Shown: positions 30 through 55,592, counted from the first letter of the stretch. The stretch is 64,000 bases of DNA from Nemertoderma westbladi (GCA_032718475.1 JAUCBJ010000896.1:1-64000); one strand, 5' to 3'. Notes: a model not told the origin generated them from the sequence alone. Made by a program: numbers and translations.

Positions 30-1253
30 GTGGATAGCTTGATACGCGGTGAAGCTGATCCGACTATTACGGAGGACGATGGTCGTTATATCGAACCGCC
101 GATGTCCCAGGAACAACTTACGCGCGAAGCGGACTATAGAAAATTCAGCGCTCGCTATACGAATCGTAATGGTACGTATATGGACTTCTTAACTACCGGT
201 CATCCTACCGATTTACATGATACCGATGATGTAGAAACCGAAAGAGAAATGGTTTTATTCCAATATCATACTCAGAGGAATCGTAATGATAAACCGAGAA
301 TAGATCACGAAAATTCTATTCGTAACAGACTGGGAAGACGAACCAATATGTCTGGAATCTGAAGAGATTCAGCCTATCGCGCTCGGAACAACGACAACGA
401 TTACATCCTAGAATGGTATCAAGGTCCACAGTGTCTCACTGCGTACGATTATCGCCATGCCAACTATGTTTCTCGGCAACGTTGTCGGTTATGCGCATCG
501 AGAGACCATGTTACGCCCATGGACACAAACGTCCGCTGTTCCTATTTCCACGAACAACCGGCGATGGAAATTTATTGCGCGTATTGCAGATTTAATAATT
601 TGCATATTTTTGCGGTTTGCCCTCAATTTATGACTCAATGTCACCACTGTCAACTAAAGGGACACGCCAGTTTCGATTGCCCTTTTTAATCGCGATTTGG
701 AAAGCGTAGATGAAATGATCACACTACGTTACATTAGAGCTTGGGAAGCGAACGCTGATTTACATCGTGATTCGCGCCATCGCTATTATCCTGGACGCGC
801 TTACGAAGGAATTTATGCGTTCCATCCTTATCTATTCGCTTCTGTCGAACAGAAATCACGCATATCGAGTTACAGGAAGTATATCGACGGCCTTACGAGT
901 ACCAAGCCCGCGAACGCGAGTTGGAAAGAACCATTAAACCAAGGAAGTTTCTAACTGCCTATGGTCCACCCACGGCCCTCGTTCAGACCACTCGTAAAGG
1001 ACCCGTAAGAGCGGCTGTCTTGAAACGAGCTCTCAAAGCCGTTAGACCCCTCTCCCCGGACGTTGATGTCAATCAACCCAGTACTTCGACCGGCGGATAT
1101 ACCGATCGCAATCCCATACCTTCTGATGCAATCATATTGCACCCTTCACCCAGGAGTTATAGCCCTCCTCGTAAAGTGGCTCGCCCCAAAGAGAAAAGGA
1201 CTCTTGCTAGCTTCAAAAAACTGCGTAAACGCCGTCCGCGCAAGAAAGACTAA
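30..1253 (+). pseudogene. Decayed LTR-element accessory ORF with three CCHC-type zinc knuckles and a basic C-terminal tail (5' part outside window)
   Basis: Frame of ORF 30-362 continues past TGA 360-362 to CRLC..H..C, YCAYCRFNNLHIFAVC, FMTQCHHCQLKGHASFDC. After a frameshift near 686 it reads WEANADLH...RAYEGIYAFHP; a second shift gives KKLRKRRPRKKD. Aligns by eye with ORF 49669-50868. Confidence 0.8.
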
Positions 1254-1331
1254 CTGTTTAGAGTATTTTTATATTTTAGAAACTGTGATTTTGTATATTT
1301 TATAGACTTAAATCCCATTTTCTGGGAGCGG

Positions 1332-2566
1332 TGTAAAAGCTTTTGTGGGATAACTGATACGTTTGCCTTTGCTGGCCAGTTCCCCCCCAGGCGCTGGAAT
1401 ACTCTAAAAAGGTTTTCTGACTGTATATATATTCCCCTCGCCCGCAAGGTACCTTTACAGGTGTTTTAACGGACATAAAAATAATTCTGCTATATACGTG
1501 TTTTAGTGGACATGGTAAGGCAAAAAACCTGCAATGCACCAACTACCTTTCACAGCTTAGCCGTGATAATTCATATTACGACATCTAGCAGCTGGTTGCT
1601 GACATGGAAACAGCCATTAGATGCAAGGTTCTTTGTTTGGCTTGAGCCAATCAGAGCGATTTTTCCTGTCGACGTGTAGCTTTTAGTCGATCATAAGGAG
1701 AGTGTTCAGTCTTACTGTTTTTTCTTGATACTTTGTTGTTATTGCTGTCTAAGCCAGAAACACCGGCCTTTTAGTAAGAACTATAGTAAACTGCTTGAAT
1801 TATCGAAAGTATAAACTGTTACCTAATCTAACTAACTACCGATCAATTTAATCAATCTTAACTGCATTAATCATATTGCTTGTACTGTTATTTTACCGTC
1901 AGTTATTAATTGTACCTATTTGTTGATGGAAATATTGCTATTTGGATAATACGGATAAATCACCCAATTCCCAATTTTCTTGATAACACTACAGGTTAGA
2001 GAGACCGGCTATACATAACAATTGCGATTTATATTAATGTGGTGTGTATTGAATCCAATGTTATTTAGCAGACCCTACGTGAGTCAATTACTGCTCTCTT
2101 TATGTGTGATCAAATGTACTGACTGTCGGCAGAATAGTGTGTATGATCGTGATTGGTAACAAAGTATTTCCTAAAGAATACGCTTTATACTTTAATCATA
2201 AGCAGTATCGTTGCGTTTTAGTATAAGTCTTAGTTCTGTTTAAATAGATAAAGCGCCACGTCCTAAAGGAACTGTTAATATTTCCCGAAAGCCAATAATA
2301 TCTGTCAGAGATTAATTATTAACGATCTATCGAATAATACATTAGGTATACACTGCAACCTTACACTGTAATAATACAATTCAAGCATCCGAATTCAGTC
2401 TCCCGGGTGTAGATCCATCGGGTGAATGATCGCGCATGGGCTGACTTCGGCTAATGTTTTGCGTATTAGCATAAATTATTGTCGTATGCTAAAGTGGTTT
2501 TAATTAACTAAAAGACATATAAATTTTGGCAGGTTAAACTGCTAAAGGTCTTCAAAAGCGCGAACA
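1332..2566 (+). mobile_element. Probable 3' LTR of a BEL/Pao-like element (right end approximate)
   Basis: GGGAGCGG at 1324-1331 is followed by TG; GGAGCGG also precedes the LTRs at 26456 and 48881 on the minus strand. End placed at ...GTCTTCAAAAGCGCGAACA by weak similarity to the other LTR end. No second copy in the window. Confidence 0.55.
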
Positions 2567-34751: not shown

Positions 34752-35114
34752 TATGGGAATAGGAGACTATAATAAGCCTGAACATAATACTAAAAGATTC
34801 ATATTGTGTGTTTTATATGAATTATTTTGTGGGGGGAAATTGTTAGGGTTATGATTGATGGTGTTATGCGGGACTGATATACTGTATGTACATAGGTAGG
34901 AGGATTCCAAGGAGATACCTGTTACTACCTAGGTCAGTACGGCAGGAGGTAGAGATAGATAGATTCAGTACAGCAGTACATTGTATTCGTCCGTCCTGCT
35001 TTACTTTATGCCGTCATACCATCAGTATGGGACTGCAGGTTTATAGGAATATATAGATATATATGATCATCACTTATCTTTATTATATCTTCACGTTTAC
35101 CTTGGGAACTAACA

Positions 35115-35671
35115 GTAAACATAGATGGTCTTTCGATAAGAGATCCCGCACAGCGTAGATACACGTCTCGAAATATACTAAATCCTGCTCGAGTAAAGGC
35201 ATTACACTGAGCGTCGGAGTTGTAGAAGGGTTCAAGAAATCGTCTAAACACGTCGGTATGAATTCTCCCTTCCATGTAGAACGTATGATCTTCTCCGAGA
35301 CAAAGTGGATGTCTTTTAAGAGTCCGAGACACAATGTCGGCGATTAAGCAAACATTCACTGACGACTCTATTGCTAAATAATATTGTAGGACCGCTCTTG
35401 GAGGTGACGTAATAGCCCAATACACGCATCCTCTCCATTTGAGCTGCGATTCAAACTCACTCATATCTGGAGTATCACCTTCTCCATAAGTCTCAATATA
35501 CTTAGCTCTCTTACTTTCCTTATAATCCCAATTGAATAACAGGTAGGAAATGTATCCAGTTCCAGTCTTCTGAGTATTATACTCACGAAAATATCCCTGT
35601 TCTATAGACCACAAGATAAGGGGTCGAGTGTCGACGTAAGGTGTCGGTAGTCGGTCATCGCTGTCCGTCAT
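35115..35671 (-). CDS. Accessory ORF, middle part (unknown function), cut by the Gypsy insertion
   Basis: Removing the Gypsy element and one GTAAA joins ...ERPSMFT to LLPYEGERIV... in frame. Confidence 0.75.
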
Positions 35672-35734
35672 GCCGGCGAAGTCGCTAATTAAGTCCTCCC
35701 TTACTCCTGATCCAATCTTTACAACAGTTTTATC

Positions 35735-37375
35735 TCAAATCATATTTCTTACCATCTTCGGTAGCATTCTAGCATCGATATTACAAGCTTGGTCCATCTT
35801 CTTTACTATGTCAGTGATGAGATGGTGTCGCTTTGTATTTACTGGGGGTATCGGCATTCGTTTGTCGCTCCTCTGTCTACTGAAAACGTGCAAGACTCCG
35901 TCCGCCGCTCTAATTTGTATAGTCTTAGAAGTTAAACTCTGTTGATGACTGCCGCCCTCATTATCGTAAAACATGTAACCATTTTCCTGAAACGATCTAA
36001 ACGTTCTATTCCATTCGTCCAACAATTCTTCCGAAGGTTGCCAAATCTTCTCTATGTCCTTATCATCTTCGAAACGAATAACCTTACCTCGCCAATCTGC
36101 GGCAATATCTTTATCCGACTCGAAGGTTCCAGTTCCAATCCATAAACGAATCGTTCTGGTTAAATATCCTTTCAAATTACTCGGAGCTATATCAGCACCA
36201 GCTCTATCCAGTTCCTTAAAGTCTTGAATATGAGGTGGAATGTTATACACGACCTTTTGAGTAATATGTCTACGTAAATCATATATCTTACTCATATCGC
36301 TAAAAACAACTGCAGGAAGGAACTCCAAGTTTGAAATGATTTCTGGATGATCCACGATGGGTATTTCGTACGTCGTATCCTGTCGGACTGGTATACTAAT
36401 AGAAAAATTGAGTGTCGTACTCAATGGTTTCGTAGTCGAAGTACTATATGGTTGCATTTCTCTTGTCCTCTCCGGGGATGCAATCTGTAGTCTCTGAATA
36501 ACGTTTTGAGCAAAGTTTATGCTCTCGAAAACTTCCGGTGTCATCTCCTTAGCTGGAGTTTGATCGTGTGACGTCCAATGGTAAGGTAGGCTCGCGAGTC
36601 TTCCGCCCCATTCTTCCATCTCACCTTTCTCGAAAGCCTTGTAGGCTCTGTATAGGCTAAGAGCTTCTTTCTTTTCGCGGGTTGACTGATTCGCCTCGTC
36701 CAGCGTAAGTTCAAATGCATCGGGTTCAACAACCTTAGGTGGGTAAACAACAGTTTCTCCCGCCTTTGGTCCAGTCATAGCAAACGAATGATATGGATTT
36801 GATAAAGGATACCCTCCTTCCTGGTAGCGTAGTTGTTGATGGTTCGAACACCTCGCCAATATCGGTTCAGGATTTTCCTTATTCAAACGCATCGGAATCG
36901 CATTTCGTTGTTCGCGCATACAAGAACCGCATTGATAATAAAGTTTATAAACTGAAAATGCTTCCTTGGTTTCTCTATCGTCCCCTCGTGTTCGTCTGTA
37001 AAGATGCATTCCATCAAATTCATCGCGTACCGCGGGCATAGGTTCGTGCGCCTTCAGGTATTGCATAGTATGATACAAACGACTAATTTCAGTATCGGGG
37101 TCTTCGCTAATGTCTCCCGTATCACACAAAGCGTCGTACGGGTAAAGTTCATTGAAGGTTTTGCGTAAACTTTCGATTCTTTCATTTAATGCGTTTTGCC
37201 TTCTCTTTAATACATTTGAGTCATATTTAGTTCTTGCGAGTTTTGCCGTACTTTCTGATAATTCTTTTATACCAAATATAGTATAGTCTTTGGCTCCAAA
37301 TCTCTCAAATGGCGCTGCTGCTTCCTCTTGGATATCATATCCCCATCTCGGCTCTCCATGTATCTCCTTCTCCAT
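35735..37375 (-). CDS. Accessory ORF, 5' part (unknown function; first ATG at 37375); possible CxxC...CxxH metal site
   Basis: Long sense ORF downstream of pol; in frame with the next part across one TGA; no evident signal peptide or transmembrane segment. Confidence 0.75.
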   Translation of the reverse strand: MEKEIHGEPRWGYDIQEEAAAPFERFGAKDYTIFGIKELSESTAKLARTKYDSNVLKRRQNALNERIESLRKTFNELYPYDALCDTGDISEDPDTEISRLYHTMQYLKAHEPMPAVRDEFDGMHLYRRTRGDDRETKEAFSVYKLYYQCGSCMREQRNAIPMRLNKENPEPILARCSNHQQLRYQEGGYPLSNPYHSFAMTGPKAGETVVYPPKVVEPDAFELTLDEANQSTREKKEALSLYRAYKAFEKGEMEEWGGRLASLPYHWTSHDQTPAKEMTPEVFESINFAQNVIQRLQIASPERTREMQPYSTSTTKPLSTTLNFSISIPVRQDTTYEIPIVDHPEIISNLEFLPAVVFSDMSKIYDLRRHITQKVVYNIPPHIQDFKELDRAGADIAPSNLKGYLTRTIRLWIGTGTFESDKDIAADWRGKVIRFEDDKDIEKIWQPSEELLDEWNRTFRSFQENGYMFYDNEGGSHQQSLTSKTIQIRAADGVLHVFSRQRSDKRMPIPPVNTKRHHLITDIVKKMDQACNIDARMLPKMVRNMI

Positions 37376-38036: not shown

Positions 38037-41000
38037 TTATTTACTAATATTTGTTGGAGATTTGTAGTCTCCAGACTCGTTACGAGTCTCTTCAAGAAGT
38101 ACGAGACGTTGAGTCGGTCTGTCAACTGTACGACCGTCAATTGTCCGTACCGTCACAGTTCTTGTCACTCCATCCATAGATGGATGTGTGGCTAAAATTA
38201 CACCTGTTATCCAGAAGCGTCTTTTTAGATTCACTTCCGCTAACAGCACGTGATCTCCCGGCTTTAATGCCCGGGTGTTATTGTACCAGTTTGTTCTGGC
38301 AGAAATAGAGGGCAAATAATGGTTTTGCCATATCTCCCAGAATTTGTTAGCTAGTAGTTGCGTGATTTTCCACGCTTTTCTACCGTAGCTATCGCCTTCC
38401 ATTGGAAAAGAAATAGGCGTCAAAGTAGTCGGTGCCTGCATTAGCAGGTGTGCAGGTGTTAAAGCAAACTGGGATTGTTTGTCATCGGGTACTAATACTA
38501 TTGGTCTAGTATTTAGTATTGCCTCGATTTCAACAAACAATGTGGTCAATTGGTCGTCTGTCAATATGTGGTTTACTGGAATGACCTTTGCCATTGCCGT
38601 TTTGATAGATCTAATCAATCTCTCCCAGACTCCGCCTCTCCATGGACTATCTGGAGGATTAAACTTCCAAATAATCTTGTAAGGACGTAGTTCGTTTGAG
38701 ATTTGATCGTGATCTAATTTCTTAAAGGCTCTAGCTATTTCATTTCGAGCACCAACAAAGTTTGTCCCTTGGTCTGAGTACAAGCATTTCACTAGTCCGC
38801 GTCTAGCGATAAATCGCCGCAATGCTAGTATAAACGCGTTGGTGGAAAGATCCATCACACGTTCGATATGAACTGCCCTACTGGACATACATGTGAAAAT
38901 CAGTCCCCAGCGTTTTACTAGTATACGTCCACGTTTCGTATGTATGGGACCAAAGCAATCAATTCCAGTCTCTGTAAAAGGTGGTCTGAATGCTTGAAGT
39001 CGTGCTTGTGGAAGTTCACTCATTTCTTGGGTACCTATTCTAGAATGTACCTTTTTACAAATAATACACGTACGTGTCACTGAACTTAACGCTTTACTGG
39101 GTCTAATCAATACAAATCTTGTACGTAAGTAGGAAAGACAGTGGTGTCTTCCAGCGTGTTTCAGATGTAAATGTGCGTCCAGTATCATTGCACGTTGTAA
39201 TTCGTGATGCTGCGGTATTATTATTGGGTACCTAAAGTTCGTGTTAAAGTCAATGTTTTGAAGCCGAGATTTATGACAAATTAAGCCATTATAAATTATC
39301 GGACTCCAACTCAATATTGGTGACGACTTGATTGGTTGACCTTGATTTATAGATGTGAATTCGCGTGCGAAGTATCGCAGTTGGTAATGGCGAATTAATT
39401 TAATTTCACACCTGTCAATCTCAGTCAATGTAAGTCGACGTGTAAAGTCGCATTTGCCTTTAACGTATTGTACAAAACGTACAATCCACGCTAATTTTCG
39501 GCAAGCATTTGTCCAAGAATCTGTTAGGTTTACAATACGGTCGACGTAAGTATTTGTGACGTCATCAGGTAAGTCAATGGAGAATTTGGAAGGTTTTGAT
39601 TTACTAGAAGGTCCCACGGGTCCGCCGGTAAGTATTCCCTTGTTGACTGTTGATCCGTCCGGGTCTACAAGTAATTCGTCCTTCCTTGTTTTCTTACCTT
39701 GATTGTCAGTACTTTGTAAGTCGATCGTTAATGGTGGTTTGAACTCTATGGGGTCACTGGGTTTCGGTAAACTTAATTTTCTGCCGATATTAATCCCAGG
39801 GCTCACCATAGGTTGCAAGTTTGGTATGTCTCTTGAGCGCAAAGTAACACCTGTATTTACATTAGCGTAGGTACTACCCACATCTGTAATACATGAGGTT
39901 TCACTGTGCTCATGGTTGCTCAAGTGTGTCAAATTTGGTAGTTTGTCAATACAAGGCTGCTCCAATAGGGAAACTGCGGCTTTACTATTTGTCAATATGT
40001 TACTAGTGTCTGGTAGAACATTTTGTGACATGTCTGGTAAAATGTTTCGCGGAACATCCGGCGAAATATCTAGTGACGTGTCTGGCAAAACGTCTGGTTG
40101 ACCGTCTAGTAACGCGTCTGGTGATACGTCTGGTAACGTGTCTGGTTGACCGTCTGGCGATATGTCTGGTGTAGAAAGGCTCGCAAGTCTTCCGTTCTTG
40201 ACTTTTGAAGTTATCGCCTTCCATTTCGCCTTCGGTTTTTTCTTAAGTTTAGCCGCCGTCTTTTTCTTTGCTTTCCCTTTCTTTGGTTTTTTAATTTCGG
40301 CGTCTTTAGGGATAGTGTTAGACTTGTTGTCGTATAGTGGCGGCCAATGTAGTGTTGATCTTTGCAAGAATTGTGGTCCGTGCTGCCAAAATTCTTTGTT
40401 CTCCGATTTACAGAATTCCTCAGGCATCATTCCTCGCGACGCAATATCGGCTGGGTTTTGTGGTCCGGGACAATGTCGCCAATCTTCCTTTATTGAACGG
40501 TCTAGAATTTCTGCGCGACGGTTAGCTACGAATGTCTTGAATTCGAGTGTGTCGTTGTTTATGTAAAATAAAACCAACGTCGCGTCAGTCCAATAAAATA
40601 TCTGTAAACTTGACTGTAGTTCCGTCTGTATAAGGTTCACGATTGTGGTTGACAGGGTTGCTGCTTGTAGCTCAGCGCGTGGTGTCGTCATATACTTAGT
40701 AGGCATAGTCTTAGCCTTAGAGGTAATGAGCGAAACATCAAACTCTTCTGAGTCTACTTGTCTGCGCAAGTACGCTGCCACTCCAAAGCCGTTGTCACTG
40801 GCGTCGGAAAAACAATGTAATTCCAAGTTGTCGGGAAATGTCGTTTGTAATAAGTACACTCTGGGTATGGAATAATCCTCTAGTGAAGATAATTCTGCCT
40901 CCCAGGTTTTCCATAAATCCACTTGTTCTGATGAGATCGGCTCGTCCCATGTCAGTCCATCCTTCCAAATACTGCGCATATAGATTCTGGCTTGCAGTAT

Positions 41001-42539
41001 TATTGGACTGATGAATCCTAATGGATCGAATAATCGACTCAATTTTGACAAGCAGGATCTCTTTGTCAGAGTGTTTTCTTGAGTGTCCAGTCTCACCTTC
41101 ACTCGAAAGTTGTCCGTGTTTGGGTCCCAAAAGAGCCCCAACACCTTGGTCGTCGGTAGTGGTTCAAACTCTAGGTCTATTTCACCACCTCCACGCTCAG
41201 TCGTTCCGAATGAGTCTACCAATTCGGCACTGTTTGAGGCGAATTTGGTGAGGTTAAAACCTCCGCCCGCTAAGCAGTCCCGTAATTGATGTGCTACTGT
41301 TATAGCACGTTCTACTGTGTCACAACTCTGTAAACCATCGTCCACGTAAAAGTCACGTTCTACGATCTTGATTATCTCTGGGTCATATATATGTTTCTGA
41401 TCCCTAGCGGCTTGCTTTAGGGCGTACATCGTACAGTTTGGGCTGTCCCTGGCACCGAAAACGCGAACTTGCATTTGGTAAGTCGCTGGTGGTAGACCTA
41501 AGTCTCCTTCCGTGTACCAGAGGAACCTCAAACTGTCTCTGTCTCGCTCTAACGCTCTCACTTGGTGAAACATCGCTTCAACGTCACAAGTAAAGGCTAC
41601 CTGGCGTTGACGGAAGCGCATAATCACCCCCATAAGATAATTATTCATGCTCGGTCCATCCATCAACTCGCTATTGAGGGACATTCCCTCAAACAGAGCC
41701 GCACAGTCATTGACTACACGTACTTTGTCTGGTTTGTCGGGATGTCTCACGTAGTGATGTGGTAAGTAGTATGTCTGGTCTGTCACAATCTCTGGGTTAG
41801 TCATTCTGATGGCGTATCCCTTTGTTAAATACGTCTCCATCTGAGTATTATACTGCAGATGGGCTTTCTCGTCCTTTAATAGATGTTGTCGTATTGAGTG
41901 TAAACGTCTTAAGGCTAGCGGATAGTTATTTATGAGTTTAGGACGTTGGTTACGCCATAGCATCCCTACCTCATAATGTCCGTCTTTCGTCTGGCGGATA
42001 GTATCTTCCATGATCTTCAAAGATTGTTTCTCTTGTTCCGACATACATGGATCGTAGCTACCAGGTTCAGCTGTATCTTGTTCTAACCACCTGATAGTCT
42101 TCTCCGTTAATTCTTTGTCCAATGCAGCTTGTTCCACTTGATGATTTCTTAATGCGTTATCATCGATATCGACGGGCATTGTTGAGGTTATTGGTGTAGG
42201 TAGACTCGCAAGCCTTCCGGCGTTATCATCTGTCGTCGATGGAATCTCTGGCTGACTCGTCTTCTCCCCAAGTTCTAAACTCACCTGGTGGATTAGCTGC
42301 TCCTTGTGACTTATCATACTAGCTACACACGTCGTATCATGTTTTGTCGAATGTAGTGTAGTATAGTCTATGTCGTGTGAAAAGGAATGAGTCGAAGTTG
42401 TAGTTAATAAACTACATGTACTTTGTATATCGTCTTCCTCGTCACTTATATCCAGTGTGCGCACAGGCGCTCGAGTATACCACCCTATCGGCGTTCTACA
42501 GGCGTATGCGTTTCCAGCTACGACTGCCGATGGTCTGGT
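38037..42539 (-). CDS. BEL/Pao pol: RT, RNase H, integrase
   Basis: YYLPHH..KVRVVNDC, DVEAMFHQV, RDFYVDD, LHCFSDAS, TPRAELQAA, NPADIASRG, TGIDCFGP, YSDQGTNF, GGVWERLI, LTPAHLL; in frame with the protease ORF across one TAA (42540-42542). Confidence 0.95.
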   Translation of the reverse strand, partial: TRPSAVVAGNAYACRTPIGWYTRAPVRTLDISDEEDDIQSTCSLLTTTSTHSFSHDIDYTTLHSTKHDTTCVASMISHKEQLIHQVSLELGEKTSQPEIPSTTDDNAGRLASLPTPITSTMPVDIDDNALRNHQVEQAALDKELTEKTIRWLEQDTAEPGSYDPCMSEQEKQSLKIMEDTIRQTKDGHYEVGMLWRNQRPKLINNYPLALRRLHSIRQHLLKDEKAHLQYNTQMETYLTKGYAIRMTNPEIVTDQTYYLPHHYVRHPDKPDKVRVVNDCAALFEGMSLNSELMDGPSMNNYLMGVIMRFRQRQVAFTCDVEAMFHQVRALERDRDSLRFLWYTEGDLGLPPATYQMQVRVFGARDSPNCTMYALKQAARDQKHIYDPEIIKIVERDFYVDDGLQSCDTVERAITVAHQLRDCLAGGGFNLTKFASNSAELVDSFGTTERGGGEIDLEFEPLPTTKVLGLFWDPNTDNFRVKVRLDTQENTLTKRSCLSKLSRLFDPLGFISPIILQARIYMRSIWKDGLTWDEPISSEQVDLWKTWEAELSSLEDYSIPRVYLLQTTFPDNLELHCFSDASDNGFGVAAYLRRQVDSEEFDVSLITSKAKTMPTKYMTTPRAELQAATLSTTIVNLIQTELQSSLQIFYWTDATLVLFYINNDTLEFKTFVANRRAEILDRSIKEDWRHCPGPQNPADIASRGMMPEEFCKSENKEFWQHGPQFLQRSTLHWPPLYDNKSNTIPKDAEIKKPKKGKAKKKTAAKLKKKPKAKWKAITSKVKNGRLASLSTPDISPDGQPDTLPDVSPDALLDGQPDVLPDTSLDISPDVPRNILPDMSQNVLPDTSNILTNSKAAVSLLEQPCIDKLPNLTHLSNHEHSETSCITDVGSTYANVNTGVTLRSRDIPNLQPMVSPGINIGRKLSLPKPSDPIEFKPPLTIDLQSTDNQGKKTRKDELLVDPDGSTVNKGILTGGPVGPSSKSKPSKFSIDLPDDVTNTYVDRIVNLTDSWTNACRKLAWIVRFVQYVKGKCDFTRRLTLTEIDRCEIKLIRHYQLRYFAREFTSINQGQPIKSSPILSWSPIIYNGLICHKSRLQNIDFNTNFRYPIIIPQHHELQRAMILDAHLHLKHAGRHHCLSYLRTRFVLIRPSKALSSVTRTCIICKKVHSRIGTQEMSELPQARLQAFRPPFTETGIDCFGPIHTKRGRILVKRWGLIFTCMSSRAVHIERVMDLSTNAFILALRRFIARRGLVKCLYSDQGTNFVGARNEIARAFKKLDHDQISNELRPYKIIWKFNPPDSPWRGGVWERLIRSIKTAMAKVIPVNHILTDDQLTTLFVEIEAILNTRPIVLVPDDKQSQFALTPAHLLMQAPTTLTPISFPMEGDSYGRKAWKITQLLANKFWEIWQNHYLPSISARTNWYNNTRALKPGDHVLLAEVNLKRRFWITGVILATHPSMDGVTRTVTVRTIDGRTVDRPTQRLVLLEETRNESGDYKSPTNISK

Positions 42540-45500
42540 TTACCACACTTGATGTAGGTTGAATTGATCTGTCCCGATCAGCATTGCTACCGACCTATAG
42601 TTGACAGGACATTCAGGTACACCAAGGTGTCTGAAGTACTTACGGTCCTCCAAGGATTGTTCTGGGACAGGACCTAGTAGGTTACTAAAGTCCTTGGTTG
42701 CCGCAAAAGTCAAATCCTTAAAGGGCAACAAAGACCTCTCCTTTTCGCTGTGTTGCGATTTCGGAAGGAGAGTGTCTAAGTTTAACTTAACTCGTGTCAC
42801 TGGTATTGCACGTTGTCCATGCATACTACTTACGGTGTAACTGACGTTCTTACCTTGTTGGAGATCCGTCACAACATCAGCTACTTTCTCATCCACATAA
42901 CTATGTGATGAGGCTGAATCCAGGATAGCGTAGATCCTTTTGCTCCCTTTGGTGCCAGTAATCTTGACAGGAATTATACTAAACCCCTTTAGTTGATCAG
43001 GCGTCAGATGCGCAATCGATGGTTGTTTGTCTCCAGTATCAAAGTAAACGTCGTCGTCTTCCGACTCTTCATCCGACGATCCTGATTGTTCCGAGAAGCA
43101 ATCTCTAATGTGCGTCACGAAAGTCGGTGTTGTTTTCGACTCTCGACCCTTATATGCTGTGTTGCATCTTGCTGCCGCTTCCGGGTGTTCCCTGGTGAAG
43201 CGTTTGGTCGGCGTATGACTGTCTGTGTGGAGCAAACCGTCATGGTTGCGTCCACACGAAGGACAGGTGTCTGTATTTGGGCAGTCTTTACGGACATGTC
43301 CATGTAGTGTACACCGCCAACAAGAGTCCAATGGCCGTATTTGTAGTCGTCGTTCCTCCGAGTTCAATTCGCGGAATAGTCGACAACCTCTCAGTTTATG
43401 GCTAGTATGTCGTTTACCTAGCCGTTCGCAATATTGGCAACCGCTGAAATCCACAGTTAGCTGTTGTCTGGTCTGTTTGGTCCCAATTGGTGCGGATACC
43501 TTATTATTGTCCGAAAATTGTCGGGTGTCGGTCGATGTTGCGTAAGTAACCGTCTTGGTGGATGTTGTTTGGGGTTTTTGTCGGTTCGAGGATGGTAATG
43601 TTATTCCTTCCGCCACGATATGTTGGTCCGTGTAGTTCGAACGCGTCTCGACTACTGCCTCTCTGGATATCAGTAAGTAGACGTCTTCCAACTTCAAGAA
43701 TCCGCCCCTCTCTTCTCGCTGATATTCTATCTTTCGCCACTCCCGACGAAGTCGATGGTGTAATCTTCCTATTATTTTCAATAGGACTGTCGGAGTGTTT
43801 GCGTAGTCAAGTTGTCCAATCGAGCGTAGTGTAGTAATGGCGTTCTTAATCTCGTCAGCTAATTTCAGTAAGTCAACGGGTTTTGTTATAGCCCCCCCCC
43901 TTACAGAGTTCTTCTATCACTGACTTAGCCATACTAACGGTGCCTCCGTAAATCGAAGTTAAGCGATCATACGCTAGTTCGAAGGCATCTGGTACACCGA
44001 CAAAGGTCTCCGCTAGACGTTTCGGTTCTCCCGTCAGCGTTTGTAGCAGGTAGTTGAATTTCTCCCTCGATGTAAAGGCGCATGCTGCTATTTGTGTCTC
44101 GATGTAGTCCACAAAGGTGTGCCAATGTTTTGAATTACCTGAAAACTTCGGTGGTTGTTGCACCGGTAGCCCTTGTCTTGCTGCGAATTTCGCTATCTCC
44201 TCGGCCACGTTCAAAGTTTTGCGTCCTTGGTTGGCAATCGAGTTGATGTTCTCTCGTCTTGGCGCTTTTCCTTGATACGAGGTGTTTCTCGAGGGTTGCT
44301 TTCTTTGTTGCTTCGGGTGTCTAGAGTGTTTCCTCTAAACGTTCCTCTATCTGGGCCAACTTGTCTACAACTGGGCGCATTATTTCGGCGAGTTGTTGCG
44401 TACTAATTGCGTCCGTTGGTTGTAACGCTTTCTGTGTTGGTGTATTTTGTGGAGGATTGTCGATAAAGGAGTTATCTGAACGCTCACGTTTATATTCGTC
44501 GGCCGCTCCTGTTCTAAATACCTCACGTTTCGGGTAATCCGATTCACTCGAAGTACTACTGTCACCTGGATACGGTGGTCGACGTGCTCGTGTCCGTTGC
44601 GTTGTTCGAATTCTAACATTCCGTTTCGGAACATCGTCCACTGGTCTCCGTTGTTCGGTAGGCTCGCGAGTCTTCCTCGAAGTCGTAGATTGCGATGTAA
44701 ACTGGTTAAACGGTTGCGTTTCCACTGGTCTCCGTTGTTCGGTAGGCTCACAAGTCTTCCTCGAAGTCGTAGATTGCGATGTAAACTGAATCGGTGGTCG
44801 AGTAACAGCGTTTGAATCCAAAGGCCTTGTAGGTCTAAACACAGTTGGGTAAGCGTAGTGTGTAACGGGTTTAGGTGTCGAAGGTGGACTCACCTGTTTA
44901 GTCGTCAGTAATGCAGGTGCGGTCAACAAACTACTACGATCTGTAATCGGCGGGTTACTTACCTTGACTTTTAGAATGGGCGACGACGTTGCTCTTGGCT
45001 GCACAAACTTGTCCGGAATAACAAACCTGTGTTCCGTCGCACCATGGATAGGAGAAATGTTACTACTACCCGCAATCGAAACAGGTTCTTTAGTCGTAAT
45101 TGGTGCAAACATAGGAGTTACTTGAGGGAATCTTTGACATAAGTCTTTAACTAATTGTCTTTCTCGCCCAGGTGCCCCTACACTTCCTTCCTTCATTCGT
45201 TCCTGAATTTGGCGGTGCCTTACCTCTATCTGGTCCAAATCATGTCCGTCACGAGATCTCATCGATCGATCGCGGGCTAGAAGATCCAGATTTTCCTTGG
45301 CTTCGGCTTCTATAGTGCTGTTGTTGCTGTCTGGAAATTTCTGACGTCACTATACTTACCTCGCCAATTTCGCTACGAATACTCACTAACGATTGGTCCA
45401 GTATTCCCGGTGCCGATTCGATTTGTACGGGCGAAGTTTCCCTCGTATATTCTGGCACGGTTTCCAAATCGCCGACGTCTTCGCCGCACATACGTAAGTG

Positions 45501-46151
45501 GTCCGTCAGATGTTTCAATTGTCCATCCAGTCGGTACAGTTCCTGTTCTTCCTTGGGCTGAAATAATTCGTCCGAAACTGACTCACCTAACAACTGGTCC
45601 GCTTGTTCCTGTTGTATCTGCCTAATCGTCGACTTAAACTGAATCAGTTTCTCTCTAGCGATCATTAGTTTCTCGAGGATTCTAAGTTGAGTATCCACGT
45701 CCTGTCTCTGTCTAGCTAGATCTTGTAGACCAATTAGATTATCTACGGACTTATGTACTCTACTTTGTACTCTAACCTGGAGGGTGTAGAACTCAAACCG
45801 AGACATCGGAGCGGTCAACTCGTCTAATATGCGTTGGCCTTCTCCAATACTCCTGGTAATATGCGCCATGTAGCCGCCGACGCTTCTAACCACACTCTCC
45901 TGGCTTCCTACTGAACTTACCATGTCCGTTTCCCTGTATCTAGGTTGCGGGACCGTTAGAAAGTCCTCGGTCCTGCCGTCGCCTCGTACTACGGCATCCG
46001 GTACTCCCGTTGGATGTACTGGTGACGCACACGGTGTAGGTTTGGTAGGCTCGCGAGTCTTCCCCTGTGGTTCTTCCGCTGCTGACTTATCTCCGTCACA
46101 TGAGTCATAGTTGGTAGGTGTATTCTTCGTATAGTCTTGTTTGTCACTCAT
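42540..46151 (-). pseudogene. BEL/Pao gag-protease, frameshifted (pieces 46151-45249, 45262-44321, 44214-43873, 43781-42540)
   Basis: PPKFSGNSKHWHTF..EKFNYL capsid-like motif; triple knuckle CQYC..H..C, CWRC..H..C, CPSC..H..LLH; protease YAILDSAS. Confidence 0.88.
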
Positions 46152-46949
46152 TTCGGTAGTTGTAAGTCAAGTAAAGTGAGTGTCAAAGTATCGAATTTAC
46201 CGTATTTATATCTAACGGTACTAATTACAGTCATATAAAATTAGCCTACCGGCCGATTTTATAGCAAATGGATAAAATTAGCCTAGACGGCCAATTTTAC
46301 AGCAAATAAATGTCACGGTATAAGTATATAATAAAATTAGCCTAACGGCCAATTTTATAACAAATAAATCGGATAACGATATACGTTATCAAAATATAAA
46401 TTTAACACAAATAATACGGACTAATTCAGCAATAAACAAAGAAATCGTACGGAATGCATAAATACTTGAGACAGTGGAACCCACAATAATTTTAACTAAT
46501 ATGGTAATGCCTAACTGATTAATGCAACTTTTCAAACTCACCCACTCCAATAATTCTCCAGAAAAAACAGATTCCCAGATACAAACCGGACGTGAACCTT
46601 TCCGTTTCCAACGCTGCGGACGAAGTGCGATTTTCCCAACCAAAATTGTTGAGTTATCTATCTCCCAAACTCGTGAAACACGGTCTTGCTCCCGTTACAG
46701 TCTAGAAATGAGGTCTGAATCCTGAAAAACAAAAGAGTTAGGTTTTACTTTTACGAAAATTTTGTACCGGTACAATATGGTATTTAAACCCTTTTAAACA
46801 CCGGTATTCAATTCCAAAATGTTTTACACGCGGTTCAAATCAAATTTTATTTCAAAAAATTAGCACTTAGCTAATCAAATATAAATTTTTACCTCAAAAT
46901 ACAAAATTTTCAAATAACTTTAGTCCTACCGAACCGTAGTTCAGTAAAA

Positions 46950-46960
46950 CATATTCCTAC
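46950..46960 (-). promoter_or_regulatory. Non-tRNA primer-binding-site candidate GTAGGAATATG, complementary to LTR 47993-48003
   Basis: Abuts the LTR end; no TGG; perfect 11-bp inverted match inside the LTR. Confidence 0.65.
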
Positions 46961-48881
46961 TATTGTGAAGAGACAGTAACAATACCTGCAATATCATACT
47001 ACAAAGTTTGTGAATCAAATCATAATCCGACCTTCTCACCAAAACAGTAAACTCCAAGTAAGCGAATATATTGCAGTATCGGTCTCTTATAACAGGTGAG
47101 GCAGAAAACAGTCTACGGACAGACAAACTTCGATAAAACAAAATCCCGCGCAGCGAATCCTAAAATCAGGCTGACTCACTGACGGACTAAGGGGCTCGTA
47201 TACTTTGCCGCGGTGTGATTTATATGGTTGGGCGAAAAGGACGCTAGCTAGGTGCAGAGATTTGGAGATATCTAACTAGCGGGCAAAGTGCAGTACGGAC
47301 AAAAGTTAATTTTATATATTTTGAGGTGTAAATAATTTCTAACGCGCGTGTGTTAATTCTGAACAGTCAAGATCAGTTTTGCTCCTTCATATATATAATT
47401 ACTGGGTACGGTGTGCATTTTACGAATATTCTAATTTTGTAACTTGTAGGTCCAATACTCACGAATGATAAGGCTCCTTCCCCTCTTGCGTATTTCCAGG
47501 ACTCAAATTCAGGCATAAGGTTAATACTACGCCCAGAATTCGGCAATTTTAATTTACCAGGTCCCTAATACTAAGAAGAAATGTGTTAGTTTACTACAGT
47601 AGGCGTACTGTTACTAATAGCTAGCCTGGCGTCCTATCTAGAATTTTGGTTACCTAGGTGGGCTTGGTAACTTCCTATCAGGATGTCGGCGGGGACACGG
47701 TAGATGTTAGTATATCCCTAATAGCCTCAATTTATTTTGCGCCTAGTCGTAAACTGCCCTACCGCCTGAACGGTACAATCCTAATTCAGGTGAAACACAG
47801 TAACTCTCCTGGCCTACAAGTTCTAATGCAATGGACACCGTTGTACTACAAATAGTCACAGACGCACCTGTACTTAGCAAGAGTTAGGCGTACAGTTTGC
47901 TGCACCCTACCAATGTGTATGCTTTGTACCGGTGTGCCTACGTCCTATCTGCGTACTAGTATCTCTGCCTGAGCTCTCCTCTCCTCTCCCCCGTAGGAAT
48001 ATGAAGGTCTACTGCGGTTTTTTCCTGAATCAAAACAGTACAGTCCCTAGATGTAATTTTAGGCGTACAGCGTGTCACTACCTCTACCTTCGATCTTTGG
48101 TCTTATACTTAGGTAGCAAGGCATCGAACGCTGTCTAACCTTTCAGGCGATGGGTGAATAACTGAGAGTGATATTGCGGGTTGTCTCCTGTCTACATTCC
48201 TTGGATGTTCCCGTTCATTGCTGCGGCCCGATGTTTAGCCAGCCATCCTGTCCCTCAGTTGAGTTCACCGTGGTGAAGCATAGTAAAACAGATAGAAAAG
48301 GGCAGATGTGACAAGTATTTCTAACTTTTATTACAAAATCAAACAATAACTATTATACAATAAACAGAATAGATTAAATCGCAAGACTGAGATGTAATAG
48401 TGATGTAGTGAATATTGAAGATTGAGATTGATAACTAATGAACGAAACTGCACCTTTTATACCAAATTTGTGCCGTAATCAATCGAGAAAATTCTCGATT
48501 GTTCTATGAGTTCTAACAGAATTTTAAAGATAGCCATTGGTCCAGCAAATATATAACTTGTACGACATTGGTTACAATCTAATAACTACAGTCTCATTGG
48601 TTAATCTTACTTCGAGCAAATGCAATTAATTTGTAGCGGTCAATTTAAATGAGTTGAAATTCTGCACAAAAAACAATTCGCACCTACTAGGATTCGAACT
48701 CAATACACACTACATATAATTTCCAACGCTCTACCGACTGAGCTACTGAACCACTTGACTAATCATCGTACAAATAGATATAGCAAATACAAATGAGGAC
48801 TTAATGTAATCTTTAGCAAAGTTAATTCGAATAAAATAAAAATTTTGAAAATCCACGGCGTTTAGAGAATATAATTCTATA
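46961..48881 (-). repeat. Family 1 LTR in the 5' position (upstream of gag)
   Basis: Near-identical to 24536-26456. Confidence 0.92.
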
Positions 48882-51785
48882 CCGCTCCATGAAAACAGGA
48901 TATTATAGTGCATAAAATATACGGTTTTCACCAATAATCAATCAAATTATAGAATACTTAGGGCGTACTTACATATTTACAAATTAAATTTCAAACAATA
49001 CTTCCTTTCTACATAATGATTCGATACAAAATAATTACAAATTCAAACTTTACATATTTAAGGCTTTACTAAGTAAGTACAATATAAATCTAAATTAAAT
49101 TCACCAATATAAATCTATTGCATCTCAATATTGCAAAATTCAAATAATTACAAATACAAATAAATGAAAATCATAAGAAAGGCTCGCGAGTCTTCCATCT
49201 ACTATTGCATCTCAAATATTGCATAAATTCAAATAATTACAAATACTTTTGTGCCTAAATATAGATTGCATAAGTTCGGAATAATTACAAATATGAGTCT
49301 TTCTAAGTACAAAACTTTCTAACTATAAAACTTTCTAAATAGAAAATATAATGCTTTACAAATGAAACTATAAGAAAGGCCCACGAGTCTTCCATCTACT
49401 CTTACTTTCTATCTCACTGTAAATACAAATACTGCTTATAAGATATATATTGCATAGTATTCGGAACAATATAAATTGCATAAGTTCGGAATAATCACAA
49501 ATATAAAATATAAATCTTGCAAAATACAAATTCTTACTAAATATAAATCTTACTAAATACGAGTTCTTCCAGAATACAAAACTTACTAAATATAAAACAT
49601 ATAATTCAAATAAATCACAAATTCACAAGAAAGGCTCACGAGTCTTCCGTCCACCCTTGCCCTCCCTTTTATTGCTTAGTAGATCGAGCCCTGCCTCGTC
49701 CTCGAAAACTGCGCACAGGTGACTTTGCTCGCGATATGGGACTCGTGGGGCGAGTCACTGGTTTTGTTTGGACGTTGGGAGACGGTGCGCCCGTTTCCTC
49801 ACAAATTCGTCTATTTGGTATCCCGAAACCTCTACCGATTCCTCGTGACCGATCAGTTGTCACTACAGTTGGTAAAACGTCTGGGAACGCGCGGGAAGCG
49901 GACGACGCAGACCCAAGAGTAGCTTGCACCCCCTTTTGATCAGCTGGTGTATGTCCCGATCCTCCTGTTGGTTCTCTAGGAAGCGATACCGTATCCCGAG
50001 TAATTCGAATAGTCGGCTCGACTCCCTTGCGTTCTTGTATATTAATAGACTTCTTTAATTGTTGGCTAACTTTCTGGACCCTTATGATCCTACCCTGCCC
50101 GTCCTCCCGAGGGTGACGTGCAGACGGCGCAACCAGAGTGGCTGGTATATTTGTCGCCTCTAGGATCTCCTCTTCCTCGAATACGCTCGCTCGTATACGC
50201 CTATGATAGAACGCGGCTCGGTACGCCCATGCGACGGTTAACCAAGCTCCTTTATTCCGCTTTTCAGTTCGGAAACGATCAAATTCACCATACGTGATAC
50301 GATTTACGACTTTCTGAAAATTCCACGTGTTCTTTTTGTCCGGGTGAATCTGTAATAGATACTCGCGCACCACTCGGAATCCACTGTCGTGAGGCAAGAT
50401 GTCGACTACCTTGATAAGTTCGTCATATTGGGGCATAGCGGAGATGTATCCTTCCGACATCATCGTTTGGGGATTTACCGCCCAAAATCCAAGATGCGCC
50501 CTCATCGGAAATCGTCTTCTTTGTGCCGATACATGTTCATCGGCTAAATCTTCCCACTCATCGAACAGTTTTCTCACGAGTTTTACAGATTCGTGTTCAT
50601 AAGGTATGTCTCTTAGTTGGCATTCAGATGCTCGATGCCCTTTTATATTGCAATAAGTACATTGAGCCATAAATCTCCAGCAAGTATAAAAGGTATGAGA
50701 CCCTTGATCTCCACACCATCCACAGATTAGTTGAGTCGTAGTAATGTGCTTTCCACTGCACTTTGTCATATGATGTCCAGCGACGCCACATTTACAACAC
50801 ATCGTATTGGCAGGGTACCACACTCGTTCATATATAAGATCTCCAATTGGTCGAGCGCTTCCTCCCACACTATAATCATAATCATCTGGATCTATGGGTT
50901 GGTGTTTCTGAAGGTTGTATACAAACTACAGCATCTGTTGCTTCAAGTTGTCGAATCTCCGTCTGAGATTTCTTCGGGAGGTTCCTTTCAATCTCAGGAA
51001 GTTCCTCTAAAGGATCGTCAGTGATCGTAGTCGTTACTTCGAAATCATCACCAAGGTGACCGATAGGCGCGCGCGTCTGCCGTGATTCATCCATAACCTC
51101 CACGATACGTTCTCCTTCATAGGGTAACAATGTAAATGTTAGGGTTATGATTGATGGTGTTATGCGGGACTGATATACTGTATGTATATAGGTAGGAGGA
51201 TTCCAAGGAGATACCGGTTACTACCTAGGTCAGTACGGCAGGAGGTAGAGATAGATAGATTCAGTACAGCAGTACATTGTATTCGTCCGTCCTGCTTTAC
51301 TTTATGCCGTCATACCATCAGTATGGGACTGCAGGTTTATAGGAATATATAGATATATATGATCATCACTTATCTTTATTATATCTTCACGTTTACCTTG
51401 GGAACTAACAAATGGCGCTGCGAGTTGAAAGAAACCTATGGGCCTTGATACTGACTAACTGGACTACAGACCAGGGCCACGCATTGCTGCTTTGATTAGG
51501 CCTATTGATTTGATACTACATCAGCAGGACGGTAATTGCAACTACAGAACTACTGACCAAATTGCTACATCAGTACAGACCGGTACGGATCAACCGTACT
51601 GAGGTCACTGCTACAGCTTTTACATACGTACCGTCTCACCGTCGGTTGCTACCGCCACAACCAGACAACGATTACCGTTGCTTTCAAAACTTCTACCTAC
51701 CATTCCAACCAGCCTAGACCGTACATTCCTGCATTCGTTTTTTCTTACACCGGTATTACAAACCGGGCTGGCAGGTGGGAAATAG
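48882..51785. repeat. Duplicate of 26457-29362: PPT, accessory ORF 3' part, Gypsy LTR (51137-51410), PBS and leader
   Basis: Near-identical sequence with a 2-bp deletion near 50903. Confidence 0.92.
49669..50868 (-). CDS. Duplicate triple-CCHC accessory ORF segment, open through all knuckles
   Basis: 399-codon open frame with three CCHC knuckles and FDEWEDLAD..RAHLGFWAVNP; frameshifted upstream. Confidence 0.75.
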   Translation of the reverse strand: MGGSARPIGDLIYERVWYPANTMCCKCGVAGHHMTKCSGKHITTTQLICGWCGDQGSHTFYTCWRFMAQCTYCNIKGHRASECQLRDIPYEHESVKLVRKLFDEWEDLADEHVSAQRRRFPMRAHLGFWAVNPQTMMSEGYISAMPQYDELIKVVDILPHDSGFRVVREYLLQIHPDKKNTWNFQKVVNRITYGEFDRFRTEKRNKGAWLTVAWAYRAAFYHRRIRASVFEEEEILEATNIPATLVAPSARHPREDGQGRIIRVQKVSQQLKKSINIQERKGVEPTIRITRDTVSLPREPTGGSGHTPADQKGVQATLGSASSASRAFPDVLPTVVTTDRSRGIGRGFGIPNRRICEETGAPSPNVQTKPVTRPTSPISRAKSPVRSFRGRGRARSTKQ

Positions 51786-51798
51786 TAATAGTAATAGG

Positions 51799-52408: not shown

Positions 52409-54162
52409 ATTTGGAGTGTTGTAATTTAGTAACCTTTAATTTTATTATTCTTTTTTCACTGTTCAGTGACGCCCCTGTCTGTAACTGGTAGGCAGTCTGT
52501 TGGTAACTGGAAGCCAGGCGGCAGCAGTCTTTCTGTGAAAGTTAATCATAAGAATGTAATTTAAAGTGATAACTAACACACAGTGGTATCTATACTAAGG
52601 TTAGTTACTAATAATTGTTCTATAAAGGTCTTAATACTTGCCGCCTTTGATTGCCTTTATGAGACTTTATTGATTGCATAAGCTCTCTGCTCTCAGCTCT
52701 TTTCCTTTCGGCTGTAAATCCAAAAGGCGTCTGCGGCATAGAAGGGAAGTTTTACCTTATAAAGTGTGGGTTGGATGTTTCCTTAAACCCCGGTTTATAC
52801 ACTCAAAAAAATTTATTGTTCTCCAAACTGCCAAAAACATTATCAGTACGACAACATAATCTATTTAAAAAATATAAGAATGTGATGGGATCCACGAAGG
52901 ATCCCGATTTATCCGTTTGTCAATTTACGCGTCCCCGCCGTGTGTGAAAGGTAAAAGAGTTTGCGTTGTTCGTTGTATATAATTTCCGGGTATAGATAGG
53001 TATAGATAATGTGTTATAGTATAGAGTATCTAAATGTTGGTATATGGAAGGCGGGAAACGGTAATTGAAGTCCCGGTACTTCCCTAGCTAAACTATCCCA
53101 ACTAACACCAATAACATACTGAGATAACTGAACTGAATGATTGCTGATACCTAATAATATATTGCACGGTTTGGCCTTGCTACAGTAAATAGCCGATGCT
53201 TCCCCCCTGATTGGCTAATATCCTTGTTGGCGCCCTTTGGAGTGTTCCCGTTCACTCCAGCTATTCTCCCTCTGTTAGGGGTTTGGCCCCTGACCCTCAT
53301 TGTGCGTCTCTCCTTCCCACTTTGTTGGGGTGACACGAGTTATTGATTATCCAATCTCGTGGCCCCCAATATTGCTTAATGATTGACTTTATGGGTTCGT
53401 GTTAGCGGAATTGAATAAGCTAACACTCCCCCCCATGCTATCTTCCCGGTGAGAAGATAGCATCCACCTTTAAGTGCGCTACAATTCCGCTGGACCCCGA
53501 TCTAGTATCGGGTGTGGGGTGGAACTATTTTCTCTCAGAGCCGGCTTTCCAGGCCGCTCCCTATGGGTATGATATCGCTACCCGGGTTCGCCTGGCATCC
53601 CATGTCGGGCTGATTGTGCGCTCCTCTCACACGACTTTTGTTTCCCCAACACTTTCGCCACTTTGACTCCACTCCGTTCTCACCCTGACTCTCTTCTACT
53701 CCTCTTCTCTCTCACTCTAACTCTCGGACTTCCCTGTCCCTCACTCAGCCTCTTATCCTCCCCCCCCACACTTGAATTGCATCCGCGCTCTCTCCGCACA
53801 CCGCACTATCACCTTTACTCGACCCCTCTTTGACCTCCTTATCCTTTCTGACGAGTCCCACCCCCCTCCTGTGCTGTCGCACTCAAGAAGTGTGAAATCG
53901 TCTGGTGTCTCGTCCATAGTGCCATAGTCAGTTAGCCCCCCAGTCCCAGTAGCTAATTGAGAAAGGTTGTATGACTATAGTACTTACTTCGAATGTATAT
54001 TTCATGACTAAACTACTGATTACTACGTACGTACATACAAATTGCACTTATTTAATTATTTGCATCATTTTGAATTTGTACTTAATAGTTCGTACTTCCC
54101 ACGTGGCGCCTTCCAGGCGTACCACGTCCAAGTCTCAGTTTCTCTCTCCCAGCCCTGGGAAC

Positions 54163-55592
54163 CTATTTGTCCCTCCTGAGATAGTTCCCTCTGGCGTCCT
54201 CCTCCCTGGGTCGTTTCTTGGTCACTACCGCTCCTCTGGGATCCGCTTTCTGCCTTCGGACTTTCGCCGCCACCTCCCTACTGATCCCGGTCATTGGCTC
54301 CTTGGGCGCTGGTGTTATCAGTGCCCGATATCGCTTCGCCGGTGGCCCCTCCGAGTGGCCCTGTTGTCTCCCCCTGGTGGCGTCCCATAAGATCATCTTC
54401 ATTGCCTGCGGCACGTGCTCCGCCAAGAAATCCCTAAACTCCCCTCGGTTCTGTGGTGTCCACCTGTCCAAATACCTTTGTGTATTTATTACCCCGGCAT
54501 ACGACGCCGCCGTCGCTACCTCTTGATAGGTAAACGGTAGCCTCCTCTTTATGATCTCCAAGTGAGCCTCCTGGTTGATTAGGAAGAAACCCCAATTAAA
54601 CTCCTGGGCCTTCATGCGTTGCCGCGTCATGGCCCCGACGTCGGCCCATTCTTCGAAGATCCTGAACTTCTCCTCATCGTCCATCCAGTCGCACTGGTGT
54701 CCGTAGTGTCCCCAAAAGTTACACTTCGGACATCGGTTATGCAACCGTGGACACGCCCAATCCTGTGGCTCGACTCGCGGCAGTAGAGACAACTAGTCCC
54801 TTTCTGGAATCGGTACAGGCAGCTCATTTCCTGGTGGGTCTGTCTCCCACAGTAGTCACAGCCGAGCACCAATGTCTCCCGCCCCACGTCGTCTTTCGTC
54901 CCAAGCGATCTCCGCGGTCTGTGGAGTCGCTGATAGGCAAACTTCTGGACGTTAGCGTCCCTGTCTACGTCGATTTCCTCACCCCTCCCGGGCATTGTCT
55001 CCCCGAATACTACTCGTGGTGCCGTCCCCGGTTGATCGCCCAACCTGATAGTGCTCCCCGCGAAATCCATCGCCGGTCCCTCGTGCACCCAGGCCCGCTT
55101 GCCGGGTTTGTCCCAGAAGGCTCTTGCCCCACTGGCCGTCACCACCCTCCCGCCAACCCAGTCCGTGTCCGAGTGGCCTATCCTCTCGATGGGTGGCATC
55201 TCTCTGAACTCGTCGTCGTCCTCGTCCTCCTCTCGCAGTGGTTCCAACCCCGGTATCCTGGTGGACCCACTATGTCCCTTCCCGCCTTGGTTCTTGCCCG
55301 TAACTCTCCATTCCTCAAGCTCCCCTAGCTTCCTTTGCGGTTGATCGCCCTCGGCGCCTGCTGGTATGGGCATCGCTTGCAATCCCGACGTCGACTGTTT
55401 CGGTGATCCCACCGTCCACCCCAGTTCTTTCCCTAGAGACTCCCCCGAACTCCCTGACGAAGTCCAACGAAGTACGTCTAAGGCCATTTGTTCCTCGAAG
55501 CCGTAGCTCTGCGCCCTAGCTTCCTCCTCCCTCTCTTCTGCTTCTCTCCTCTCCCACAAGTTTGCCTGCCATCTCGAACTCTGCCCGATCGC
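54163..55592 (-). pseudogene. Family 2 accessory triple-CCHC ORF (frameshift near 54765)
   Basis: CDYCGRQTHQEMSC, CLYCRESSH/DWAC, CPKCNFWGHYGHQC, then FRIFEEWADVG..FNWGFFLINQ and a basic tail. Confidence 0.8.

Follow-up and report, generated by a model that had tools for sequence, protein, structure and literature searches.

A triple-knuckle third gene of BEL/Pao retrotransposons, fused to a DEDDy exonuclease in most long relatives, and its possible part in self-priming

[quoted passage not shown] Third genes of another kind are known from bdelloid rotifers, whose Juno/Vesta LTR retrotransposons and Athena/Terminon elements carry a DEDDy exonuclease as open reading frame (ORF) 3 (Rodriguez et al. 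2017, PMC5408684), and a DEDDy domain is also carried by Dada DNA transposons (PMC3706591). In the cellular RNase D of Trypanosoma brucei (TbRND; PMC7797062), RNA binding comes from the CCHC domain, which also stimulates cleavage, and its deletion reduces both. Here we describe an accessory gene in a window of 64,000 nucleotides, the whole stretch analyzed, from Nemertoderma westbladi (GCA_032718475.1 JAUCBJ010000896.1:1-64000). The window is a stack of LTR elements nested in one another, three of which (A, B and C) carry the gene. Leaving its role aside, we are confident that it is a third gene of BEL/Pao coding for a triple-knuckle module, which in element B and most long relatives is fused to a DEDDy domain.

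In element B, the gene is split by a nested Gypsy element. Its frame runs from a first Met at 37375 to 35117 (752 codons, with one stop) and continues past the Gypsy for another 487 codons to 27244; the whole broken frame has ~1,240 codons, with the knuckle module at its end, downstream of pol. A preliminary description of this DNA had taken 49669-50868 as a whole ORF, but the segment (49669-50925) lies in a duplicate of the 3' half of this far longer frame starting at about 37375. The knuckle-free parts of the 39 database relatives with at least 300 residues upstream of the module gave an N-terminal profile with a single match in the window, at 35773-35222 in the B frame (E 1.6e-17). A profile of 13 intact exonuclease domains has its only window match at 35980-35300 (E 8.8e-20), and matches 29 of the 39 long relatives, 13 of them by construction. 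PDB matches of the family profile include EXD2 (E 1.8e-8), the RNase D of trypanosomes (E 0.002) and WRN. Structure searches had been proposed in the preliminary description, and the AlphaFold and PDB comparison gave a DEDDy exonuclease fold upstream of the knuckles: the model of the relative P0024 (mean predicted local distance difference test, pLDDT, 78) matches the Nibbler, EXD2, NrnC and WRN exonucleases. The DnaQ-like fold is read from this model, to whose family the B domain is tied by profile. The top Atlas match of another relative, P0068, is a euglenozoan exonuclease-CCHC cluster (0.89), which we take as a lead only.

Read with X at its in-frame stop, the B domain has the motifs D-N-E (ExoI, D-x-E), D (ExoII) and Y-x3-E (ExoIII, Y-x3-D). 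Among 40 aligned rows, five do not cover the first motif, and 14 of the 35 scorable ones (element B and 13 relatives) keep all five catalytic positions, D-E-D-Y-D/E. These intact domains are spread over the tree at ~20% overall identity, which argues that catalysis has been selected in many lineages. On a quick tree with many long branches the active-site state needs five changes, and a single origin is possible. As judged from these motifs, the domains of B and of its intact relatives are predicted to be active 3'-5' nucleases. In B and most long relatives the knuckles are the C-terminal module of a DEDDy exonuclease protein, a point missed in the preliminary description, and the gene therefore belongs with the nuclease third genes of the rotifer elements and not in a class of knuckle-only genes. 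Ahead of the B exonuclease lie ~470 amino acids (36000-37375, minus strand) with a Cys/His motif, far longer than the corresponding part of most relatives. The N-terminal 586 amino acids of B have no word-based homologue among the longer proteins, to which that search was confined, and no usable Atlas match.

A family profile built from the three window segments, as the preliminary description had suggested, retrieved 92 relatives at E<=1e-3 from 1.84 billion proteins, two of them reaching 1e-10. In turn, a profile of 72 of the 92 matches all three elements (C, E 2.5e-23; B, 4.9e-21; A, 9.9e-15), values that are partly circular, since these three had served as seeds in gathering the family. 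The sequence evidence indicates that the three modules are homologous, C being placed in the family because the family profile matches it, while its pairwise scores are weak; chance resemblance was rejected. The pattern of knuckles 2-3 is present in 84 of the 92 relatives, 63 of which also have F/W-E-x-x-A-x-x-G and 59 a W-G-F-type motif. The Cys/His ligands are invariant across the family, which forms ~90 clusters at <50% identity; at least two matches, P0045 and P0069, look like knuckle-only false positives. The module has no Pfam family, and all 30 of the proteins looked up are named no more than 'hypothetical protein'. A predicted model of the B module has a confident core (mean pLDDT 76, predicted template modelling score 0.71) but lacks any PDB counterpart at E<=1e-3; trypanosome RNase D (E 0.13) leads the weak matches. 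Word-based homologue searches returned nothing for the B module and only the seed for the family profile, and metagenome and viral scans recovered none of the relatives' genomic loci.

One relative, P0116, joins Peptidase_A17, Pao RNase H, integrase, DUF5641 and the accessory protein in one frame, and is the sole independent proof of a BEL/Pao context among database relatives. With 92 relatives, invariant Cys/His ligands and this Pao pol fusion, the lineage-wide, non-env accessory protein that had been postulated is borne out, and it probably binds nucleic acid. Residues ~840-1928 of P0116 comprise Pao pol, a short run of hydrophobic residues, an exonuclease whose active site is degenerate, and the knuckle module. 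P0001 has the module twice, and in P0005, possibly a host gene, it is flanked by a CCCH finger and a homeodomain.

In the window, the peptides first quoted for the three elements are located where they had been reported, and all copies are broken: B additionally carries an insertion, and C has a nested element at its 5' end (Table 1). For A, the region upstream of the 3' part of the gene lies outside the window, as does pol, and the class of A is not assignable from the window. Each element has three Cys/His motifs, but the strict CX2CX4HX4C form is found in 5 of the 9. Likewise, a helical segment follows the knuckles in each element, but as a shared domain it is clear pairwise for A and B (z 8.8, 0/5000 shuffles as good), marginal for B and C (z 2.3, 182/5000) and without signal for A and C (2171/5000). 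The basic tail is present throughout (15-18 K+R among the last 60 amino acids), and the LTRs are indeed dissimilar, with no blastn match among the three at E 1e-8. The location just upstream of the PPT (polypurine tract) applies to A, where 79 bases separate the stop from the LTR, but not to B (788) or C (737). Putative splice-like signals occur upstream of the accessory ORF.

Two other identities were rejected. The gene is not of the env-like type known from BEL/Pao elements such as roo, Tas, Cer13 and the element named Atlas, which is marked by a signal peptide, a membrane anchor and homology to fusion proteins: it has neither an env family in Pfam nor any hydrophobic segment across ten ORF pieces; the absence of a membrane anchor is thereby upheld, the best Kyte-Doolittle 19-mer reaching 1.38 at most. 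Nor is the module a displaced copy of the Gag knuckles, which sit apart from it at 43281-43322 and 58693-58734: Gag knuckles reach z 1.5-7.2 simply through their Cys/His content, and their best match to the family profile has E 2.7e-4.

Among known systems, the rotifer ORF3 proteins resemble the accessory protein in being a non-env third gene after pol, with a DEDDy fold, kept catalytic residues and no membrane anchor, and a role in 3'-end processing of element RNA has been suggested there too. However, their hosts are not BEL/Pao, their motif change is DEED rather than D-E-D-Y-D/E, and the available text describes no C-terminal triple knuckle: a Cys-His-Cys is noted in Vesta2/5, and the five main-text mentions of 'knuckle' concern gag, pol or dUTPase, so that the two groups are set apart here by text description (PMC5408684). 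T. brucei RNase D (PDB 7C42/7C45) also combines a DEDDy domain, a linker and several CCHC fingers, a likeness seen in the profile match, the weak fold match and Atlas features. It is a cellular guide-RNA trimmer with four canonical fingers (PMC7797062), whereas the accessory protein is element-borne and has three irregular fingers plus a helical W-G-F segment; we therefore recognize a TbRND-type architecture but, given also the weak scores, not TbRND orthology. Nibbler/Mut-7, EXD2, WRN, EXD1 and Egalitarian share the fold and the motif order, but at 12-19% identity, and are host genes without a knuckle module. Element B itself has the gag-pol organisation, LTRs and PPT of Belpaoviridae, and departs from the ICTV profile in its third gene and in LTRs of 1.9 kb (PMC8742986).

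The exonuclease-knuckle architecture appears to be undescribed in BEL/Pao: we did not find such an ORF in the literature searched, which does not extend to Repbase, Dfam or subscription papers. The words 'exonuclease' and 'zinc' are absent from the available main text of the BEL/Pao survey of de la Chaux and Wagner (PMC3118150), and the accessible portions of PMC6431247, PMC5718144, PMC13524379, PMC5006619, PMC9094657, PMC6338049 and PMC3985635 contain no such BEL/Pao ORF.

The primer-binding site can be examined in element B and in a young element nested in C (hereafter young C), and in both it is apparently of a non-tRNA type, as had been noted from the sequence: TGG is the start of neither site, and each is complementary to the LTR of its own element, over 11 and 9 exact bases, respectively. 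The exact complement begins at the first base past the LTR, and pairing ends at the LTR border. Shuffled sequences pair as well in 8 of 5000 cases for B and 25 of 5000 for young C, compared with 4722 of 5000 for the nested Gypsy control, which pairs over 4 bases; six cross-pairings and the control give 4-7. The duplexes reach ~18 interrupted pairs, with an energy that beats 300/300 shuffles in B and C, whereas 190/300 shuffles are as low for the Gypsy control. The partner sequence lies ~50 (young C) and ~450 (B) bases past TATA-like boxes, from which its position in the transcript is judged. It therefore probably falls within the transcript rather than at the 5' end, and the RNA beyond it would need removal. 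The closest parallel is Tf1/Tj1, whose primer site also pairs with its own LTR rather than a tRNA, again over 9-11 exact bases; those elements are Ty3/Gypsy, however, and their primer is the mRNA 5' end cut by RNase H, whereas here the elements are BEL/Pao and the partner is predicted to be internal (PMC4600332). A primer built by splicing was rejected, as in neither B nor C does a splice junction within the LTR extend the pairing. In young C, a ~34-base primer-site unit is present ~4 times after the LTR. Near the start of the B LTR there is a tRNA/SINE-like stretch with A- and B-boxes (48690-48765, minus strand; SINE, short interspersed nuclear element), which was dropped as a primer source because neither ARAGORN nor Rfam calls it.

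We tentatively favour, while giving it rather less than an even chance, the view that the accessory protein is a trimmer, encoded by the element and binding RNA, that contributes to making a self-primer. LTR-derived RNA of the element would pair with the primer site, and the knuckles would hold single-stranded element RNA, by analogy with trypanosome RNase D. The exonuclease would then chew R-region RNA in the 3'-to-5' direction until it meets the primer-site duplex, and this trimming would leave a 3' end adjoining U5, ready to prime reverse transcription. In lineages with a dead or absent nuclease, the protein would just hold the duplex, while RNase H or a host enzyme makes the 3' end. Both the use of LTR RNA as primer and the part of the accessory protein in making it are inferences from sequence. 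A stricter form, according to which this BEL/Pao lineage swapped tRNA priming for LTR RNA plus its own RNase D-like exonuclease/knuckle protein making the primer 3' end, seems doubtful to us.

Several observations weigh against this trimmer. Its chief difficulty is that many lineages can dispense with catalysis: 21 of the 35 scorable domains are degenerate, lacking one or more catalytic residues, and they include a well-supported clade of 9 on the quick tree and are still conserved; 10 of the 39 long relatives have no exonuclease-profile match at E 1e-3; and the element C ORF is matched by neither the N-terminal nor the intact-domain profile, yet the C family has a self-pairing site. In B itself, the last acidic residue of the active site is E, not D. 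Moreover, the co-occurrence of the ORF with self-pairing concerns two elements, a BEL/Pao context is shown for one database relative only, and an extra nuclease is not needed in principle, because Tf1 self-primes via RNase H (PMC4600332).

At the protein level, the residues that vary within database clusters (12 clusters with 32 members, not counting fragments) amount to 10/2788 (0.36%) in the exonuclease, 14/1736 (0.81%) in the module and 48/3288 (1.46%) in the linker, the lower variability relative to the linker having p 7e-6 and 0.06, respectively; the six of these clusters whose active sites are degenerate behave alike (5/1379 versus 36/2324 variable). A joint that skips the nested Gypsy exactly is present in contigs of all four sequencing runs (at most three samples, three studies), and in three runs all depth at the stop at 35736 reads another letter, so that both the Gypsy insertion and this stop are private to the present copy. 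Summed depth is 1e4-9e4 over the ORF against ~1e2 over the Gypsy, which is not a copy number but hints that the B family is abundant. Among the 12 indel rows listed of 52 in all, five fall in B immediately beyond the Met-to-stop frame and five in the Gypsy, and the frame itself contains one compensated pair, which a single contig supplies. Of the ORF differences that set this copy off from its family, the 15 listed (6 of them synonymous) are mostly private to the copy and uninformative on selection.

The strongest rival, which we regard as unlikely though far from negligible, is a silencing suppressor, a protein that binds or nibbles PIWI-interacting or small interfering RNAs, or their precursors, mimicking Nibbler/Mut-7/EXD1 and shielding the element RNA. 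Nibbler is among the closest folds and an EXD1-like cluster among the Atlas matches (0.80), nucleases that are dead yet conserved would fit a decoy, a link to small RNAs has been raised for the rotifer DEDDy ORF3s (Rodriguez et al., PMC5408684), and the B family looks very abundant in the four runs, by depth rather than copy number. It would, however, leave the self-pairing primer sites unexplained, though these may be independent. Somewhat less probable is a non-catalytic RNA adaptor in which module and exonuclease fold would serve the export, localisation or packaging of the element's transcript by binding it, in the manner of the dead Egalitarian domain, catalysis being incidental. Egalitarian-RNA complexes are indeed among the fold matches, the tails are basic, and the module persists with an inactive nuclease or none; what speaks against such an adaptor are the intact catalytic positions of 14 of the 35 domains across the tree despite their low identity.

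Processing or proofreading of DNA ends, whereby a WRN/EXD2-like activity would trim cDNA ends or primer remnants before integration, appears improbable: no sequence match is better than that to EXD2, WRN is close in fold, the DEDDy domain of Dada has been proposed to process 3' ends (PMC3706591), and the ends of B are unusual, but both the CCHC knuckles and the likeness to RNase D suggest RNA, and C lacks a nuclease and has ordinary TG...CA ends. That the gene is a fragment captured from a host gene, or a neutral passenger, without a role for the element can be largely dismissed, for while every window copy is broken, the young non-autonomous element lacks the ORF, and P0005, with its CCCH and homeobox domains, hints at non-element versions, the gene keeps the same position in three dissimilar elements, its ~90 divergent clusters have invariant ligands and domains that vary less than the linker, and none of the 30 proteins looked up bears a more specific name than 'hypothetical protein'.

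The identity of the gene gives a concrete meaning to a widespread, unnamed BEL/Pao accessory family and extends nuclease third genes beyond the rotifer Gypsy elements. With intact natural proteins, two questions become testable, namely the function of retrotransposon DEDDy genes and the source of the primer in BEL/Pao elements without a tRNA site, and the natural active, dead and nuclease-less versions provide a built-in comparison. A priming role of the trimmer, if true, would be a route to a reverse-transcription primer that we did not find described in the literature searched. An exonuclease was reportedly noted by Malik et al. in 2000 in nematode Cer7/13-type BEL elements, and Ganko et al. 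are said to have reported in 2001 an element-encoded primer in Cer7; if the former holds, the class had been published earlier and the novelty is confined to the knuckle-fused family.

Table 1. Features of the accessory genes and their elements in the window
Feature	Position	Strand	Details
Element A, 3' end only	3-1253; LTR from 1332	+	broken frame, PPT, LTR
Element A PPT and 3' LTR start	1318..1335	+	TG at 1332
Element A accessory ORF, 3' part	3..1253	+	broken by a stop (360-362) and by changes of frame near 686 and 955
Element A knuckles	483-539, 576-620, 639-680	+	shared segment ~715-890; basic tail up to position 1253
Element B accessory ORF, 5' half	35117..37375	-	~470 amino acids without relatives, then exonuclease; in-frame stop 35735-35737
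DEDDy 3'-5' exonuclease domain, element B	35300..35980	-	D 35965, E 35959, D 35695, Y 35380, E 35368
Element B accessory ORF, 3' half	27244..28707	-	linker, triple knuckle, shared segment, basic tail; stop 28228-28230
Duplicate of B 3' half (segment of the preliminary description)	49669..51133	-	2-base gap near 50904
Knuckles of the duplicate	50799-50758, 50724-50680, 50661-50620	-
Element B gag-pol, BEL/Pao	38037..46166	-	DUF1759, Peptidase_A17, integrase, DUF5641; with breaks
Element B LTR	46961..48881	-	1,921 bp, ends TAT...ATA; other copy 24536-26456
Element B primer-binding site	46950..46960	-	11 bases complementary to LTR
Element B anti-primer-site in LTR	47993..48014	-	11 exact pairs (48003-47993) and 7-pair arm
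Nested Gypsy splitting element B ORF	28714..35114	+	5-base target duplication, TGG-type primer site
Older element C, pol end	63595..63999	-	DUF5641, E 3e-24, BEL/Pao
Older element C accessory ORF	54163..55592	-	shared segment, basic tail; no exonuclease match
Element C knuckles	54860-54819, ~54791-54750, 54732-54691	-	frame change inside the second
Older element C, 3' LTR	52881..53426	-
Young gag-protease-only relative nested in C	55620..62380	-	LTRs 99.5% alike, 5-base target duplication
Young C primer-binding site	61824..61832	-	9 bases complementary to own LTR
Young C anti-primer-site	62018..62040	-	9 exact pairs (62026-62018) and further arms

Concerning the layout of the window, young C has neither pol nor the knuckle ORF, and separates the pol of the older C from its extra ORF. 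The ends of C are ordinary TG...CA, whereas the B LTR has apparent TAT...ATA ends, with a 5-base target duplication within satellite. The PPT is near-identical in A (1315-1331, plus strand) and B (48882-48898, minus strand), though the LTRs of A and B do not align, a likeness that fits the closer similarity of their proteins. The region 46961-51785 is a 99.5% duplicate of 24536-29362, the 3' end of element B; this 4.8-kb duplicate includes part of the nested Gypsy, sits in the 5' LTR past its first 212 bases, and is either a rearrangement or an assembly artefact. The window also contains a fragment of reverse transcriptase from a long interspersed nuclear element (21378-22133, minus strand), as well as a 24/31-base satellite and large tandem arrays with 1.35- and 4.2-kb periods (22000-24535; 52011-52408; 4250-17400).

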